A DNA stretch of 64,000 nucleotides from a virus: positions 1 through 64,000 of IMG/VR virus record IMGVR_UViG_3300021138_000014; one strand, given 5' to 3'. The notes under the pieces were generated by a model. The model was given only the letters and a program-made list of their open reading frames with translations. It ran no database searches and was not told where the DNA came from. The position numbers and the translations under genes were made by a program. Of this stretch, positions 752 through 23,789 are shown piece by piece; the stretch's first letter is position 1, and every line of letters begins with the position of its first letter.

Positions 752-794
752 TAACCGCTCGTGTGAGATACATCACGCGGGCGGTTATTTTTTT
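752..794 (+). terminator. intrinsic terminator whose upper stem/loop is a CRP-like box
   Basis: TAACCGCTCGTGTGA-GATACA-TCACGCGGGCGGTTA followed by a T tract. Confidence 0.8.
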
Positions 795-823
795 ATAAGG
801 GGAATGCCATTACCCAAAGCCAG

Positions 824-870
824 AATGTTTGTGTTGACCCTCCCACCCCTCATCCCTTCGGGATAGGGTG
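824..870. repeat. 47-bp repeat copy 1 with C(UUCG)G hairpin
   Basis: 44/47 identical to 2264-2310; ATCCC-TTCG-GGAT core. Confidence 0.9.
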
Positions 871-948
871 TGAGAGAGATCACATGTGATTTATCTCACA
901 TTGTGAGGCCGGTCACAGTGAGCTGCGTCACATGAGATCCAGGTCACA
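869..948. promoter_or_regulatory. tandem array of five CRP/GlxR-type boxes (TGTGA-N6-TCACA)
   Basis: Boxes at 869-884, 885-900, 902-917 (perfect), 917-932 and 933-948 (one mismatch each). Confidence 0.85.
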
Positions 949-964
949 CCAGCTCGGGAGAGAG

Positions 965-1031
965 TGTGACTAGTATCACGTGCAGAATGGTAGGAATTGG
1001 AGAGAGAGAGTGAGAGACTTCTCTTACTAGG
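965..1031 (+). promoter_or_regulatory. putative promoter copy 1 (CRP-like box, AATGGTA, -10-like GAGACT, ACTAGG)
   Basis: Same elements and exact spacing as 2584-2650. Confidence 0.6.
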
Positions 1032-1064
1032 TACTCTCCTAGTTATTAGATATGGGGGCAAGAT

Positions 1065-1769
1065 ATGGACATGGCACTGAAGCCTAGTAAGGACAGGAAA
1101 GTTGCTAACTCACTCACACCGTCGGGAGGGGTACGCATTGCGAACTCTTTCGGATTACCTGCAGGATTAAATTATTCATGCCCTAGCGCCACAAGTGTAT
1201 GCTCGAAAGTCTGCTACGCGGGCAAGTTGGAGAAGATATATAAAGGGGTCAAGATTAATCTCACGCATAATTGGGATTTGGTTAAGGACGCCGATATGGA
1301 TCACGTCACTAATCTACTTAACAGCATGATTATTGATTTCATTACTGAATGCGAGCGAAAGGGTTCGGCTAAGTTATTCCGTATCCATTGGGACGGCGAT
1401 TTCTTCTCAGACACCTATATTGGCGCATGGCGTCATGTTATTGAAAGTCATCCCGACGTCCGCTTTTGGGTGTATACCCGCGTGATTCGCGCGACGGTAT
1501 TACTTAAGGGGATTGATAATCTCGCGCTCTATTTCTCCACTGATAAGGATAATTTCGCGCTCGCTAAGATTGCGCTTAAGAATGGCGCACGATTGGCGAT
1601 GTTAGATGAGACTTTCGAAGCAGGACGCGAGCGCCTAGCGTCGATTGGTGAGCGTGGCGCGATGTGTCCTGAACAGCGTGGTCAGATAGATCTAAACGGC
1701 GCGTGCGTCGCGTGCGGGTTATGTATTAAAGGTAAGACTAATATTCTATTTTCAATTACTAAGAAATAA
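1065..1769 (+). CDS. GP88-like protein (Cys-motif, radical-SAM-related)
   Basis: SFGLPAG, CPSATSVCSKVCYA, FRIHWDGDF, FWVYTR, C-terminal CPE..CVACGLC. Confidence 0.75.
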   Translation: MDMALKPSKDRKVANSLTPSGGVRIANSFGLPAGLNYSCPSATSVCSKVCYAGKLEKIYKGVKINLTHNWDLVKDADMDHVTNLLNSMIIDFITECERKGSAKLFRIHWDGDFFSDTYIGAWRHVIESHPDVRFWVYTRVIRATVLLKGIDNLALYFSTDKDNFALAKIALKNGARLAMLDETFEAGRERLASIGERGAMCPEQRGQIDLNGACVACGLCIKGKTNILFSITKK

Positions 1770-1779
1770 GGAGAAGATC

Positions 1780-2064
1780 ATGGGACGTATTTTTGCAGAA
1801 GAATTGGCAAGCGGTATTGGTGGCATTACCTTAGAAAGAGGGGTTGCCATTCATATGGCGGGTAATCTCTACCCTCCTCCTCCTTCTTACATGGTTCCCG
1901 TCGCGATCGAAGCGCTAAATTCGATCTTAATCGAAGATGATTGGGAGAAGGAGATTGATCTTCCCGACGGCGTGGAATGGCGTGGGGAGAAGAAGGTTCC
2001 CGCTCGATTCGTAATCGACGCGTTCCGGTTAGAAGCTTTTCTAGATGGGGAGGATGAAGAATGA
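1780..2064 (+). CDS. hypothetical phage protein
   Basis: AGGAG RBS; HMAGNLYPPPP motif. Confidence 0.75.
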   Translation: MGRIFAEELASGIGGITLERGVAIHMAGNLYPPPPSYMVPVAIEALNSILIEDDWEKEIDLPDGVEWRGEKKVPARFVIDAFRLEAFLDGEDEE

Positions 2065-2183
2065 CCAAGCCTAAGAATGAATTTGAAGAGGCTATGAATA
2101 ACGTACTGATCGAAGGCTTGAAGAGAATTGATAGGTTGACGATCATCCCAGTAGGATTCGACGAGGATCCTCCCAAAGAATAG
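2061..2183 (+). CDS. 40-aa hypothetical protein (MTKPKNEFEEAM...)
   Basis: Read manually; ATGA overlap, GGAGG upstream, ends before terminator. Confidence 0.55.
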   Translation: MTKPKNEFEEAMNNVLIEGLKRIDRLTIIPVGFDEDPPKE

Positions 2184-2211
2184 ATTTCCTTGCCCCCGCT
2201 CGGAAAACGAG

Positions 2212-2243
2212 AACCCTCAGCGCCGATCCGCTGGGGGTTTTTT
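2212..2243 (+). terminator. intrinsic terminator
   Basis: AACCCTCAGCG-CCGATC-CGCTGGGGGTT plus T tract. Confidence 0.8.
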
Positions 2244-2262: not shown

Positions 2263-2263
2263 A

Positions 2264-2310
2264 AATGTTTGTGTTGACCCACCCTCCCCTTATCCCTTCG
2301 GGATAGGGTG
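2264..2310. repeat. 47-bp repeat copy 2 with C(UUCG)G hairpin
   Basis: 44/47 identical to 824-870. Confidence 0.9.
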
Positions 2311-2345
2311 GAGAGACTTGTCAACTCGACACGCCCGGAGCTGCA

Positions 2346-2388: not shown

Positions 2389-2404
2389 TGTTTCACGTGA
2401 AACA
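2389..2404. promoter_or_regulatory. parS: parS site (ParB/Spo0J loading site)
   Basis: Exact match to the bacterial consensus TGTTTCACGTGAAACA. Confidence 0.85.
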
Positions 2405-2551
2405 AATTGTCGACAAATCTACAAAATCAATGCCCCTGGAAATGTCGACAAAGCGATAAGGCTACTATGGAGAGAGAGAAGAGAGAGAGCAGTCGCGTAA
2501 CCAGATGAGAGACGCCTTCGGCGATCTCCTATCATGATGAGAGAGTTCAGC

Positions 2552-2567
2552 TGTGATGCAGATCACA
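2552..2567. promoter_or_regulatory. perfect CRP/GlxR-type box
   Basis: TGTGA-TGCAGA-TCACA. Confidence 0.75.
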
Positions 2568-2583
2568 TGACTAAATGGGGGTA

Positions 2584-2650
2584 TGTGACCTATATCACGC
2601 TCTAAATGGTATCTATTCACCTATACATAAATTAGGCTTGCCTCACTAGG
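2584..2650 (+). promoter_or_regulatory. putative promoter copy 2 (CRP-like box, AATGGTA, -10 TAGGCT, ACTAGG)
   Basis: Identical spacing to 965-1031; upstream of AGGAGG RBS and ORF 2685. Confidence 0.65.
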
Positions 2651-2684
2651 GAATCCTCTATCCCTCTCTAGTAGGAGGCATTAA

Positions 2685-3140
2685 ATGACGAATCTATCGG
2701 GCGCAGTTTCCCCTACAAAAGACGTCGTAGAAGTGCAAGGAGTGGAGTATCACGTTACTTCTGCACCTTGCTTGAATTTCGTTGAACATCCCCACATCGT
2801 AGACGGTCAGGGTTGCTATACCTGCCGATCTTCTTCATCCGCATTGGGCGAAACTAACTCAATTGCAGTCGCTCTCGCTAAGGAGGGTATTGAGTGCCAT
2901 GTCGCCCAGACTGGCGGTTTCTGCATGGTGGTATATGTCGTCTCAGAAGATAAGACTCGCGCAATTGGTGCGAACGCTGAGTGCGTTGTATTCGAATCTG
3001 ACTGGCAGGAGGGTGGCGAAGATCAAGAAACACTTCTTGCCTCGACTGACTGGGATGGTGGCGACCTCACACCTGAGCAAGTTGCCGAAATTGTTGAAGT
3101 CTTCAAGTCTAATCTCTACCGTTTGGAGGTCACCAAGTGA
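2685..3140 (+). CDS. hypothetical protein
   Basis: AGGAGG RBS; QTGGFCMV motif. Confidence 0.75.
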   Translation: MTNLSGAVSPTKDVVEVQGVEYHVTSAPCLNFVEHPHIVDGQGCYTCRSSSSALGETNSIAVALAKEGIECHVAQTGGFCMVVYVVSEDKTRAIGANAECVVFESDWQEGGEDQETLLASTDWDGGDLTPEQVAEIVEVFKSNLYRLEVTK

Positions 3141-12083: not shown

Positions 12084-13535
12084 CTACTCTTCTATAACTC
12101 CTTTAATTATCTGGGTAGTTTGCTCTTCTGTTAGTCCTCCATTAGGTATTTCGTTTAGATTTTTAGCCTTCTCTCCAAAGATCTGTGACAGTACGCCAGC
12201 ACTTCCCTGACGTTCAACAGTCATCCTAATAAACTCTCTTGAATCGTCCAATTCCTTAACAATTTTGAGTAACTTAAAGAGGCGATCAACCTCTTGGGAA
12301 AGGTTTGGATCAGCGTAGCCGCCGTTCAGTTCTTCCGCAAACCGCATAAAAGCAACGCGCTGGGCTTGCATTTCAACCATTGCATTGATTAAACTCTTAA
12401 GTTGATCTTTAGTCTTTACCGCAACTGGTAATTTAAATGAGCACACAGATTGAGGTTTAAAAGCGGGGCAATTAGCTGCAACAAAACATGTATCGCATAC
12501 ACGCAAACTGACCTGCTGTGAGTGTACGGTCTGTACATCTTTGATGGTTCCGTCTTCATCAATTTCAGTTTTTACTTCGTAACCGAATACTGGTAAGTTG
12601 CCCATTTCAGCCTCTTCACGAGCCAAAAGTTTCCGCATCTCTACCCCTTTCCTATCATGTATTTGAGGGGTAGTTTCCACATAATCCTCACCTAGTGGAT
12701 CATCAAAACTATCATGATAGGAGTTCTTATCCATGGTCATCCTTTGTTCTAATTGGTCAAATGACCATAGTGCCAAACGACAAACCTCTTGGGCGTCGTC
12801 TTCCATAATCAAATCAAAATTTAAACCCGCTTTTTCAATTGTATTTTTATGTCTAGATCGGGCTTGCTCTTTCATGTCTTTTGGGTACCGTACAAGGCGG
12901 TTGTTATCCCAAAGAATAGTTTCCCCGTTCATCATAGGCGATAGCCATGACAGGGTTGTAGCGCTCTGTAGGGGCACCTGACGGGTGTTATCTGGGCGGG
13001 CTATACCCAACCCATGAAAACGCGTCCCGTCGACTCTAGCGTGCGTCTGAGTGGCTCCAGCAAGCCATGTAGCGCTCTCTAGGGAGTCTCCTGAGATGCC
13101 AATGTCTAGGTACTTGGATGTAAGATCAGCAAGACCTCGTTGCCCAGTTTCTGGGCGCCAAACGGGAAGGAACTTTGACGGGGGGAGTTCTGCCCAAACT
13201 GTGTCTCGTTGGTTCTGGACAAAGTCTTTGCTTATCTGTGAGTGATCAACCTCGGTGTAACGATAAATGGCGTCGATATTCTCAACCACAAACTCTTCGT
13301 AATTGGCGGCAAATTCTTCCAATTCATCCTTACCAAGTAGTTGCTTGCGAGGAATTCCAGGGTGTACAAAGACCTTTACCTCTGGCTCAAAATAGTTTTC
13401 AATTAAGTATGCCTTGGTTTTTGGTAAACCACGCTTCACTAAACGCCAATAACTCAATCCCATATATTGGACATTGGCTGATCCTAGAAGTAGGCGATTA
13501 GAGGGTACCTCAGCACCCAAGTAAATAAATTCCAT
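12084..13535 (-). CDS. TGT/DpdA-like TIM-barrel (degenerate active site) fused to Cys4 and helical C-terminal region
   Basis: PVWR, IGISG, RFHGLG, SATTLSW..P..NGET pattern; CDTC-x5-C-x8-C. Confidence 0.5.
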   Translation of the reverse strand: MEFIYLGAEVPSNRLLLGSANVQYMGLSYWRLVKRGLPKTKAYLIENYFEPEVKVFVHPGIPRKQLLGKDELEEFAANYEEFVVENIDAIYRYTEVDHSQISKDFVQNQRDTVWAELPPSKFLPVWRPETGQRGLADLTSKYLDIGISGDSLESATWLAGATQTHARVDGTRFHGLGIARPDNTRQVPLQSATTLSWLSPMMNGETILWDNNRLVRYPKDMKEQARSRHKNTIEKAGLNFDLIMEDDAQEVCRLALWSFDQLEQRMTMDKNSYHDSFDDPLGEDYVETTPQIHDRKGVEMRKLLAREEAEMGNLPVFGYEVKTEIDEDGTIKDVQTVHSQQVSLRVCDTCFVAANCPAFKPQSVCSFKLPVAVKTKDQLKSLINAMVEMQAQRVAFMRFAEELNGGYADPNLSQEVDRLFKLLKIVKELDDSREFIRMTVERQGSAGVLSQIFGEKAKNLNEIPNGGLTEEQTTQIIKGVIEE

Positions 13536-15807: not shown

Positions 15808-16358
15808 GTGTAAAGTTTTTTCGCTTGGTTTGATTTCATCATGTTAAAGCTCTTTACTGGGCAGAAATCGCACAAATAAAATGAAGGTAGTTCTGAGGTT
15901 GATAATCCAGCCTCTCGACGTTCTTCTTTCATCACTTCAATCTTGATTAACTTTGGACCTGACTTATAGTCTGGGCAAGCGCCTTCTGGACGTAAGTGTG
16001 TTTGGAAACACTTCATAGCATCGGCAGAGTAGTTATCTTTAGCGGCGTAAACTTCTGGACCAAGACCCTCTGATTGTGTGAACAATTCTGCGGACATCCT
16101 CCTCTTACCACTGTCGCTGTTCCATACGGCAAAGTCAACGTCTACAAGCAAACCCATGTGAGGTTGCGGACGTTGGTGTGCTTCAAGTGCGCGCTTAAGG
16201 AAAAGGTTTTGTTCTTGATGATTGATTGGCCAACGTTCATCAACTGGGATCTCTTCAAATGAACGGCAAGTTTTACATGCCAAAATAAGGACCTTATGTT
16301 CGTCCTTTTTAGTTGCTAATTGGGACAGGTCAAACGCTTTATAGGGATCGATAGCCAT
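15804..16358 (-). CDS. Cys-rich hypothetical protein
   Basis: CKTC, C..H..P...C, LCDFCP. Confidence 0.75.
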   Translation of the reverse strand: MAIDPYKAFDLSQLATKKDEHKVLILACKTCRSFEEIPVDERWPINHQEQNLFLKRALEAHQRPQPHMGLLVDVDFAVWNSDSGKRRMSAELFTQSEGLGPEVYAAKDNYSADAMKCFQTHLRPEGACPDYKSGPKLIKIEVMKEERREAGLSTSELPSFYLCDFCPVKSFNMMKSNQAKKLYT

Positions 16359-21545: not shown

Positions 21546-22128
21546 AAACGTCAATCTCTCTATATTCAGGGGACTGAAGTTTATCGTAAACTTCCTTTTC
21601 GTACTCAAGGCTTGCGTTTCCAGATATCAACTGAGCAAGCGCAAAGGAGTCAGCTGCGTTGTCGTCTTTAAATTCCACGCCCCACTTCTTGTATACCTGC
21701 AAGAGCATCTGATTCTTTTGAACGTTTCCCTTGCCTGTGGCGTACTTCTTAAGCATGCTTGGGCTAACTATGTATGGGTAGCACGCATTTTCTGCCATAT
21801 ATGCACGCGCTTTAACTAATGACAACTTAACAGTGCCACCCAATTCTCCTAACATATTAGCCATCTGCGAACCGTAAGCGTACCCTTCGATCGCAGTGGC
21901 TTGAATAACATGACCCGTTGAGCGCTTGACCATGATGTTTTCAATAATATAATTTTGAATGTTTAATAACCGGGTAACCCCCATAGAATCAAACTTAGCA
22001 ACGCTAGTTTGGTAGGAACCATCTTCCCCTAGGAAAGTCATACCAAAGCCTGTGTAAGATTGATCTATACCAAGGTATACGTTAGTTGAAGTAAGTTCTC
22101 CTCCAACTAATTTAACACGTGCGGTCAT
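21538..22128 (-). CDS. RuvC-like Holliday junction resolvase
   Basis: LGIDQSYTGFG, IEGYAYG, LKKYATGKGN, DNAADSFAL. Confidence 0.85.
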   Translation of the reverse strand: MTARVKLVGGELTSTNVYLGIDQSYTGFGMTFLGEDGSYQTSVAKFDSMGVTRLLNIQNYIIENIMVKRSTGHVIQATAIEGYAYGSQMANMLGELGGTVKLSLVKARAYMAENACYPYIVSPSMLKKYATGKGNVQKNQMLLQVYKKWGVEFKDDNAADSFALAQLISGNASLEYEKEVYDKLQSPEYREIDVYA

Positions 22129-22628: not shown

Positions 22629-23478
22629 TTACCTGCTCCTCTGTATAGGATCTGCACTTCGTGCAACCTGCGGTACCGTTAATATTACACAGAGGGGGCG
22701 TGTTTTGCGAAATCGCGTCAAGGATTGACTGGGCTTGAGCAAACTTATCAAGCACTGAAAAATCATTTTTCTTAACAACAAATTCTTTAAGAGCATGGCT
22801 ACCCTTTGCCTCGTAAAGCAGTAGGGCTTCCTGTGGTGCATTTTTCATACCCATAAGTTCCATAAGTTTCATATAAATCTGAGCTTGGTTGATGTGATCA
22901 GAAAATGGGTGCTCTAAAGAATCAAAGGCTTTATCAAAATTATTGTTATGTTCGATCAAACGACCCCGATCATACCAACCTAGGGTTCCTACCCCCACTG
23001 ATTTGATCTCTAGTAGTAGGGGATCACCGAAGCCAAGCAATAGCCCATCTGCACTTCCGCTAATGCGGAGTGGTTCATGGCTTAATGGGATTTCATTGTA
23101 ATGAAGGTGTCGTGGATCTACCTTATGGTCACTGGGTAAACCTGTGAAAGTCTCCCGGCAATCGTCGCAATAGTATTTGCCGTACAACTTGTTCATATCT
23201 TTAAACCAGTTTTGCCAGCGATCATGAATCATGTGTCCAGTAGCAAACACAATTTCTCGTTGTAGGCTAGTTACTTCCGGGGCTTTAGGAGCACCTTGTA
23301 ATAAAAAGTATTGTTCTCTATGGCACCACTTGTTGCTTGCCATTGCTGAGGGGTGAATGACGTCTTGACGACGTGAGGTATCTTTTTCTTTAGCAATAAG
23401 CCATCGTTCAACTGGGCCAATTACTCTGGTGCTTTTGTCAACATTTAAAAACGCTTTCAGTGCACCAGTTGGCTTCAT
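22609..23478 (-). CDS. Cas4-like PD-(D/E)XK exonuclease
   Basis: HPS..C, G..IH, GSADG, LEIKS, QAQIY, C-terminal C..C..C. Confidence 0.8.
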   Translation of the reverse strand: MKPTGALKAFLNVDKSTRVIGPVERWLIAKEKDTSRRQDVIHPSAMASNKWCHREQYFLLQGAPKAPEVTSLQREIVFATGHMIHDRWQNWFKDMNKLYGKYYCDDCRETFTGLPSDHKVDPRHLHYNEIPLSHEPLRISGSADGLLLGFGDPLLLEIKSVGVGTLGWYDRGRLIEHNNNFDKAFDSLEHPFSDHINQAQIYMKLMELMGMKNAPQEALLLYEAKGSHALKEFVVKKNDFSVLDKFAQAQSILDAISQNTPPLCNINGTAGCTKCRSYTEEQVNERTSD

Positions 23479-23789
23479 CTTTTCCTAACCCACTCTTCCA
23501 ATGTCTTATCGTTCTTCTTGGCTTTACGCTTAAGAGCATTGCGTTCACGATGGCTGAGTCCTCCCCAGATACCGTGTTGCTCGTTGTTGCCTTCGGCGTA
23601 CAACATGCACTCAATTCGTACGGGACATTCTGCCTTACCGTCTTTGCCAAAGCAAATCGCTTTAGCCTTGTCGGCAATCAGTTTGTATTTGGCTTTATCG
23701 CGTGGGGGAAACCAAAGTTCTGTGTCCATAGATCGACACTTGGCTTTGTGGCGCCAACCTTCTATTCCTTCGTCTTCGTACAAGAACAC
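23475..23789 (-). CDS. whiB: WhiB-family transcription factor
   Basis: W...AKC....LWFP, AKAIC, CPVRIEC, GIWGG.S.RER. Confidence 0.9.
   Translation of the reverse strand: MFLYEDEGIEGWRHKAKCRSMDTELWFPPRDKAKYKLIADKAKAICFGKDGKAECPVRIECMLYAEGNNEQHGIWGGLSHRERNALKRKAKKNDKTLEEWVRKR

Follow-up and report, generated by a model that had tools for sequence, protein, structure and literature searches.

A chromosomal-type parS palindrome in a noncoding early-arm hub of a freshwater actinobacterial myovirus: a predicted docking site for host ParB

RESULTS

The phage record and the features of the early arm

The analyzed stretch of DNA (the window; 64,000 nt) is the first 64 kb of the 82,374-bp IMG/VR record IMGVR_UViG_3300021138_000014 (G000; CheckV completeness, 86%; GC content, 45%). 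The records of its relatives are designated G001 to G005. The record encodes tail sheath, baseplate, portal, large terminase, and major head proteins, together with replisome genes of its own (i.e., class II RNR, PolA, SNF2 and DnaB helicases, a DnaC/IstB-like loader, a primase, and a RecA-like protein). By gene content, it looks like an ordinary lytic myovirus. The rightward genes at 1 to 9.4 kb make up an early arm that is hypervariable, and all genes past 9.9 kb point leftward. Near and distant DNA searches against GenBank phages gave no match to the record. IMG/VR holds hundreds of relatives, two of which are complete 96-kb genomes with terminal repeats (G001, 96.5 kb; and G005). Core proteins are 50 to 85% identical among the relatives, and the early arms have almost nothing in common. 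The GP88-family protein is 60 to 65% identical in three relatives (L003, L004, and L005).

A 500-bp noncoding hub (2184 to 2684) lies between the GP88-family gene block and a gene of 151 aa. It contains, in order, a terminator-like hairpin, a LexA box, an element of about 47 nt, two CRP-type boxes, a parS palindrome, two TGTCGACA boxes, GA-rich tracts, and two further CRP-type boxes. A search of Rfam gave no RNA family match in the hub, and the window contains no tRNAs. The features considered below are as follows.

752-1064, plus strand: sister hub with a terminator, the 47-nt element, and five or six tandem CRP-type boxes, and without parS
1065-2183, plus strand: upstream genes, i.e., the GP88-family protein (1065-1769) and two small ORFs
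2193-2243, plus strand: GC hairpin with a downstream T-run that resembles a terminator and ends the upstream gene block (read directly; the terminator-then-element layout is also found in relatives)
2246-2261, no strand: perfect LexA (SOS) box of the actinobacterial type (TCGAAC-N4-GTTCGA), preceded by the terminator T-run and followed by the promoter-like element
2263-2312, plus strand: conserved promoter-like element of about 47 nt, made up of TGTTTGTGTTGACCC, a C-rich stretch, an ATCCC-TTC-GGGAT hairpin, and TAGGGT
2346-2361 and 2372-2387, no strand: two perfect CRP/GlxR-type boxes, the second ending 1 bp before parS
2389-2404, no strand: perfect 16-bp chromosomal-type parS palindrome (read directly; counterparts with at most one mismatch in the hub of relatives)
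2408-2415 and 2443-2450, no strand: two TGTCGACA-centered boxes directly after parS (region 2405-2455)
2462-2684, plus strand: remainder of the hub, with GA-rich tracts, a GGCTACT motif, two CRP-type boxes (2552, perfect; 2584, one mismatch), and the ribosome-binding region that precedes the 151-aa gene
2685-3140, plus strand: first gene downstream of the hub (151 aa), without a known family and not conserved in relatives
12084-13535, minus strand: 483-aa protein matching phrog_887 "queuine tRNA-ribosyltransferase" (E = 5e-55), conserved in all relatives
23475-23789, minus strand: WhiB-family gene, a marker of an actinobacterial host

Host-protein sites and a repeated promoter-like element in the hub

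The element of about 47 nt is repeated within each genome, and a second copy in the window lies at 826 to 872. It stands downstream of terminators and is codirectional with the genes. Of the 80 related loci, 26 contain its 11-nt core, with 83 occurrences in total, and the element is also present in L202/L205 (G001, five copies), L203, and L204. Two spacer forms (i.e., CCCACCCTCCCC and CCCTCCCACCCC) are found side by side in single genomes. The element is probably the early promoter of the family, but the 24-nt gap between its -35-like and -10-like boxes is unusual for a promoter.

LexA and CRP-type boxes flank the promoter-like elements, a placement that might let host regulators suspend the lytic cycle. 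The LexA box is the only copy in the record. Perfect or near-perfect LexA boxes were also observed in the early arms of all four genomes compared, none of which has an integrase (about 0.006 expected per genome); those of the relatives lie at 84775 in G001, at 16063 and 21780-21903 in G004, and at 2345 and 2712 in G005. The record has seven perfect CRP-type boxes against about 0.08 expected, and six of the seven fall in the two hubs. With up to one mismatch allowed, arrays of TGTGA-N6-TCACA are confined to the early arm (14 boxes in G000 and 12 in G005), are dense at 869-980, 2346-2387, and 2552-2599 of the window and at 1.9 to 9.6 kb of G005, and are nearly absent from G001 and G004.

A 12-mer, ATGTCGACAAAT, which we take to be one mismatch from the actinobacterial DnaA-box consensus, is kept in the hubs of relatives (7 loci versus 0.15 expected); the motif was seen in the hubs of L365, L433, L323, L003, and L005. 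Perfect DnaA boxes (TTATCCACA) are clustered in the hubs of other relatives, with five in L376 (about 16.3 to 16.9 kb) and seven in G001 (positions including 4128/4160 and 83733-83768). The window contains no perfect DnaA box and shows no enrichment of such boxes, and a phage origin with DnaA boxes was rejected as an explanation of its site on these grounds. Since some relatives have DnaA boxes and the window has none, lineages differ in the host-protein sites that they carry.

A single perfect parS in the record

The preliminary description had reported a perfect match to chromosomal parS placed 1 bp after a CRP-type box, and both statements were borne out. Direct reading and a motif search show that positions 2389 to 2404 (TGTTTCACGTGAAACA) match the chromosomal-type parS consensus (tGTTNCACGTGAAACa) at 16 of 16 positions, with the single base C2388 between the palindrome and the perfect TGTGA-N6-TCACA box at 2372 to 2387. 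The composition-based expectation for an exact match was calculated to be about 3e-5 per genome; a shuffle expectation of 0.45 refers to matches with up to three mismatches and not to exact ones. The further copies that the description had proposed looking for were sought in the whole 82,374-bp record, and no other perfect site was found. The second-best match (65494-65509; TGTTTCACCAGAAACA) has two mismatches and lies inside a gene of 1,102 aa (62860-66168); it is probably nonfunctional because its CACGTG core is broken. CACGTG itself occurs 15 times, close to expectation, which rules it out as a restriction or avoidance signal. The palindrome also differs from a CRP/GlxR operator (TGTGA-N6-TCACA), with which it has only the ends TGT...ACA in common: it mismatches both CRP half-sites (positions 4-5 and 12-13; four mismatches at key positions).

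No partition or integration genes in the record or its complete relatives

Searches of the full record with the ParB_N and HTH_ParB profiles gave no candidates, and ParB_N was not found in five relatives, including both complete genomes (G001 and G005). For CbiA-type ParA, G000 to G005 yielded only one weak P-loop hit (E = 0.018), which was rejected as ParA, the gene being the DnaC/IstB-like helicase loader. Tyrosine and serine recombinases (integrases) were likewise absent from the record and from the complete relatives G005 and G001. The searches for partition and integration genes covered four to six related records. Thus, the earlier remark that no parAB was in view holds beyond the window, for the full record and two complete relatives. 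G000 to G005 do not have the layout of a self-contained phage or plasmid parABS system, in which the element's own ParB, usually together with ParA, is encoded beside the centromere.

Recurrence of parS in the early-arm hub of relatives

An exact 19-mer of the promoter-like element is present in five other viral contigs, and four of the five have a 15/16 parS located 99 to 277 nt downstream. We then surveyed 80 related loci (1.26 Mb) chosen by similarity of the RNR gene, which borders the early arm. A parS with at most one mismatch was found in six of these loci (five nonredundant) against about 0.02 expected (i.e., a >300-fold excess), while the reversed-pattern control gave no site in the 80 relatives. 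All of the relatives' sites lie 3.6 to 6.5 kb beyond the RNR stop, i.e., in the early-arm hub. A further site in G004, together with the five nonredundant loci and the window, makes seven sequence contexts. The variants in the relatives have A or C at position 1 or C at position 5, and G000, G004, and G005 each carry one parS per genome.

The flanks of the seven contexts are unrelated, the distance from parS to the promoter-like element ranges from about -30 to about +300 nt, and the orientation varies. In L417, parS lies between the terminator and the promoter-like element, in the slot that the LexA box occupies in the window. No neighboring protein family is common to more than four of the seven contexts, and the downstream genes are not conserved; a cognate phage gene beside parS was ruled out on this basis.

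The preliminary description had held that absence of the site from close relatives would refute its inference, and the outcome on this point is mixed. The nearest relatives (L003/G002 and L005) have the same hub without parS, and in the complete genome of G001 the element is present five times and nothing resembles parS, but parS is present at the same place in five or six more distant lineages. Of the 40 loci in which the region is covered, 5 have the site (about 1 in 8). The phages with parS are spread over an RNR tree, on which at least four gains or losses are counted, a number that is approximate because loci not covering the hub were scored as parS negative. Since the nearest relatives are without parS and more distant lineages have it at the same place, the site is an optional accessory cis element of this phage family and not a core one, but it is clearly under selection.

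Chromosomal parS in a candidate host clade

Since the phage encodes a WhiB-family protein, we take its host to be an actinobacterium. This protein is 74% identical to WhiB on a 7.5-kb contig (L324) of a metagenome-assembled genome (MAG) of "uncultured Rhodoluna sp." The contig proves to be a piece of a related phage with conserved gene order (RecA-like gene, 118-aa gene, and WhiB; 64 to 74% identical), and its GC content matches that of the MAG. Because L324 is itself phage DNA, the pointer to Rhodoluna comes from binning only, and a Rhodoluna-like clade is a weak candidate for the host.

The Rhodoluna MAG has two perfect parS sites located 1 to 2 kb from a ParB_N gene. Clustered parS sites with at most one mismatch were found in 25 of the 31 genomes around this MAG (one control hit). 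The natural variants in this clade have A, G, or C at position 1 or C at position 5, and one genome has a core change. The phage variants (A1, C1, and C5) all fall within this set. The phage hub resembles the host parS loci in the 16 bp only, which rules out captured host DNA as its source.

Perfect parS sites across IMG/VR

At least 119 IMG/VR stretches contain a perfect parS, versus 2 for a reversed palindrome of the same composition (i.e., an excess over the control of at least 60-fold). No ParB homologue was detected in 102 fetched IMG/VR parS loci, even at E = 1; the query recovered its own source locus, which shows that the search worked. In 24 of the fetched loci, the number of perfect sites ranged from two to five. 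Arrays of three to five perfect sites occur in unrelated contigs, including L102, L187, and L128, without a ParB homologue in the fetched flanks. The same holds for the flanks of two loci with five perfect sites each: L103 (2657-3444), where the sites lie beside a small-terminase gene, and L142 (10535-11462), which carries a portal gene on the same locus. In a freshwater phage contig with a GP88 gene (L011), a perfect parS at 353 to 368 lies in a small ORF and encodes ...ILFHVKH....

DISCUSSION

Host ParB as the predicted reader of the site

ParB loads at parS as a CTP-dependent clamp, spreads along DNA, and engages ParA and SMC, and the ParB complex of actinobacteria is tied to the cell pole. 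With good confidence, we predict that positions 2389 to 2404 form a ParB site. The fuller reading, in which the 16-mer serves a phage without partition genes as a functional docking site for the chromosomal ParB of the host, is in our judgment probable. A hijack of host ParB, as the preliminary description had suggested, is the most economical account because parS is selected, parAB is absent, the candidate clade uses this very 16-mer, and there is a precedent in phi29. That suggestion is strengthened by a selected parS without parAB, an actinobacterial host (WhiB), and a candidate clade with the identical 16-mer beside parB; the purposes that the description had attached to it lie outside this support. 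Several points count against the docking reading: the single site per genome, the small share of covering relatives that have one (5 of 40, with the nearest relatives and G001 among those without it), the gene content of an ordinary lytic phage that brings its own replisome, the position of parS among transcription-factor sites, the weak link to a host clade, and a possible modification of the phage DNA.

After injection, dimers of host ParB would recognize the phage parS, bind CTP, close into clamps, and slide onto the flanking phage DNA. The resulting partition complex could interact with ParA and SMC of the host and, in actinobacteria, with the polar scaffold; during delayed lysis, the phage genome would then be placed in the cell or passed on in the manner of a mini-chromosome origin. 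We propose positioning or inheritance as the purpose of the site only tentatively; it is favored, for a delayed infection, because parS is accompanied by LexA and CRP-type boxes and the host does not form spores. Lin and Grossman reportedly showed in 1998 that a single parS stabilizes a plasmid through host Spo0J/Soj. The 483-aa product of 12084 to 13535 is predicted to be DpdA-like, and 7-deazaguanine may thus be present in the phage DNA; none of the genes nearby was recognized as one for preQ0 synthesis. The record also encodes a C5 methyltransferase. Given these two enzymes, the phage DNA may be modified, which could alter its recognition by ParB.

Alternative explanations

The data argue against a chance match, a cognate phage protein encoded nearby, and an operator at a fixed position. 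The reading closest to docking for partition accepts that host ParB binds and makes the purpose transcriptional: its clamps would serve the early arm as a repressor, roadblock, or insulator, and ParB would join LexA and CRP/GlxR as a host input. Silencing by KorB and by P1 ParB offers a comparison for such an effect, and a regulatory role also fits the position of parS among transcription-factor sites. In the window, parS abuts a CRP-type box between promoter-like elements; in L417, it immediately precedes the promoter-like element, at the place taken by the LexA box in the window; and the hubs of the family mix LexA, CRP, and DnaA sites. However, an operator would not usually differ so much in orientation and in its spacing from the promoter-like element (about -30 to about +300 nt); a varying place and orientation in the hub would be expected of a centromere-like site instead. 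We also know of no regulator role for chromosomal ParB in actinobacteria, which counts against this explanation, and we consider it unlikely. ParB might alternatively be bound for the sake of depletion, with replicating phage genomes loading many clamps, draining ParB from the host origin, and disturbing segregation or division. The lack of partition genes in the phage, the high copy number that phage DNA reaches, and the catalytic loading of ParB-CTP at parS would all suit such a decoy. Its benefit to a lytic phage is nevertheless hard to see, most relatives are without the site, and one site per genome would be a weak sponge early in infection; we regard the decoy as improbable.

The two remaining explanations dispense with ParB. 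A phage regulator or a host factor that reads CACGTG could bind the palindrome, its likeness to parS being coincidental. The hub is indeed packed with other palindromes, the LexA box has the same CACGTG center, and the ends TGT...ACA resemble those of a CRP box. A coincidence at 16 of 16 positions is very unlikely, though, and the variants in the relatives are exactly natural parS variants; moreover, no phage gene co-occurs with the site, and the four mismatches at key CRP half-site positions are difficult to reconcile with a CRP-type factor. This explanation is very improbable in our view. As for a chance match or a neutral passenger without function, about 250,000 windows were scanned, so that an exact match somewhere is unsurprising on its own, and the nearest relatives are without the site. 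Chance is ruled out because parS recurs in relatives (six sites against about 0.02 expected), in >300-fold excess and with zero control hits. Its location is kept despite complete turnover of the flanks, and no host flank was transferred with it. We therefore give a functionless match next to no credence.

Comparison with known systems

Host-type parS sites read by host Spo0J are described in the virulent Bacillus phages phi29 and Nf. In phi29, five parS sites occur together with Spo0A boxes; the early promoters are shut down by Spo0A, and host Spo0J contributes to entrapment of the phage genome in the spore (PMC2731898, citing Meijer et al. 2005). The phage described here resembles phi29 in that it carries a host-type chromosomal parS, is without parA, parB, and an integrase (as are its two complete relatives), is lytic by gene content, and has parS together with predicted sites for host global regulators near putative early promoters. 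It differs in several respects. Whereas phi29 combines several parS sites with a terminal-protein genome, a sporulating Firmicute host, and entrapment in spores, here a single site (one each in G000, G004, and G005) is found in a myovirus of about 96 kb. The host is to be sought among nonsporulating actinobacteria of freshwater, LexA and CRP-type boxes take the place of Spo0A boxes, and parS is optional within the actinophage family. To our knowledge, loading of host ParB onto phage DNA has so far been shown only for phi29. In the open-access literature, we found no paper describing host-type parS on actinophages.

The site has the 16-bp sequence and the tolerated variants of the chromosomal parS/ParB-CTP complexes of Corynebacterium, Mycobacterium, and Streptomyces. 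Actinobacterial chromosomes, however, have clusters of two to seven parS sites beside parAB and oriC, while the phage has one site and no parAB. As in the plasmid prophages P1 and N15 and the cluster A mycobacteriophages, a centromere-like site could support extrachromosomal inheritance; those phages encode ParA and ParB of their own and have their own nonchromosomal parS, none of which is found here. The parS of Corynebacterium glutamicum and Mycobacterium smegmatis has the same sequence as the phage site, and model actinobacteria are therefore usable for testing the docking reading. Another mobile element that uses the partition system of a different replicon is SGI1, which is reported to hijack the parABS of IncC plasmids (PMC10954446); the pair there is a genomic island and a plasmid, while here it is a phage and a chromosome. 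Taken together, the window most likely presents a phi29-type borrowing of host ParB in a freshwater actinobacterial myovirus, predicted to take place within a hub of host-protein sites.

Implications

Sporadic sites with a conserved position, together with the excess of perfect parS in IMG/VR, suggest that the strategy of phi29 may be widespread and not a curiosity of Bacillus. It is conceivable, although we put this forward as speculation, that the early-arm hubs of this abundant family of freshwater actinophages are modular docking platforms in which lineages mix ParB, LexA, CRP/GlxR, and DnaA sites around a repeated promoter-like element. If so, an integrase-less phage would sense host physiology and ride the chromosome machinery, with a dormant or carrier state that does not depend on sporulation. 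With the at least 60-fold excess of orphan parS sites, modular hubs would also mean that the borrowing of host ParB is a general and as yet undescribed phage strategy. If host ParB does load, a seemingly strictly lytic phage would gain segregation, condensin, and polar-tethering machinery for the price of 16 bp, and the site would provide a molecular handle on pseudolysogeny and carrier states in the slow-growing, abundant, and poorly understood actinobacteria of freshwater.
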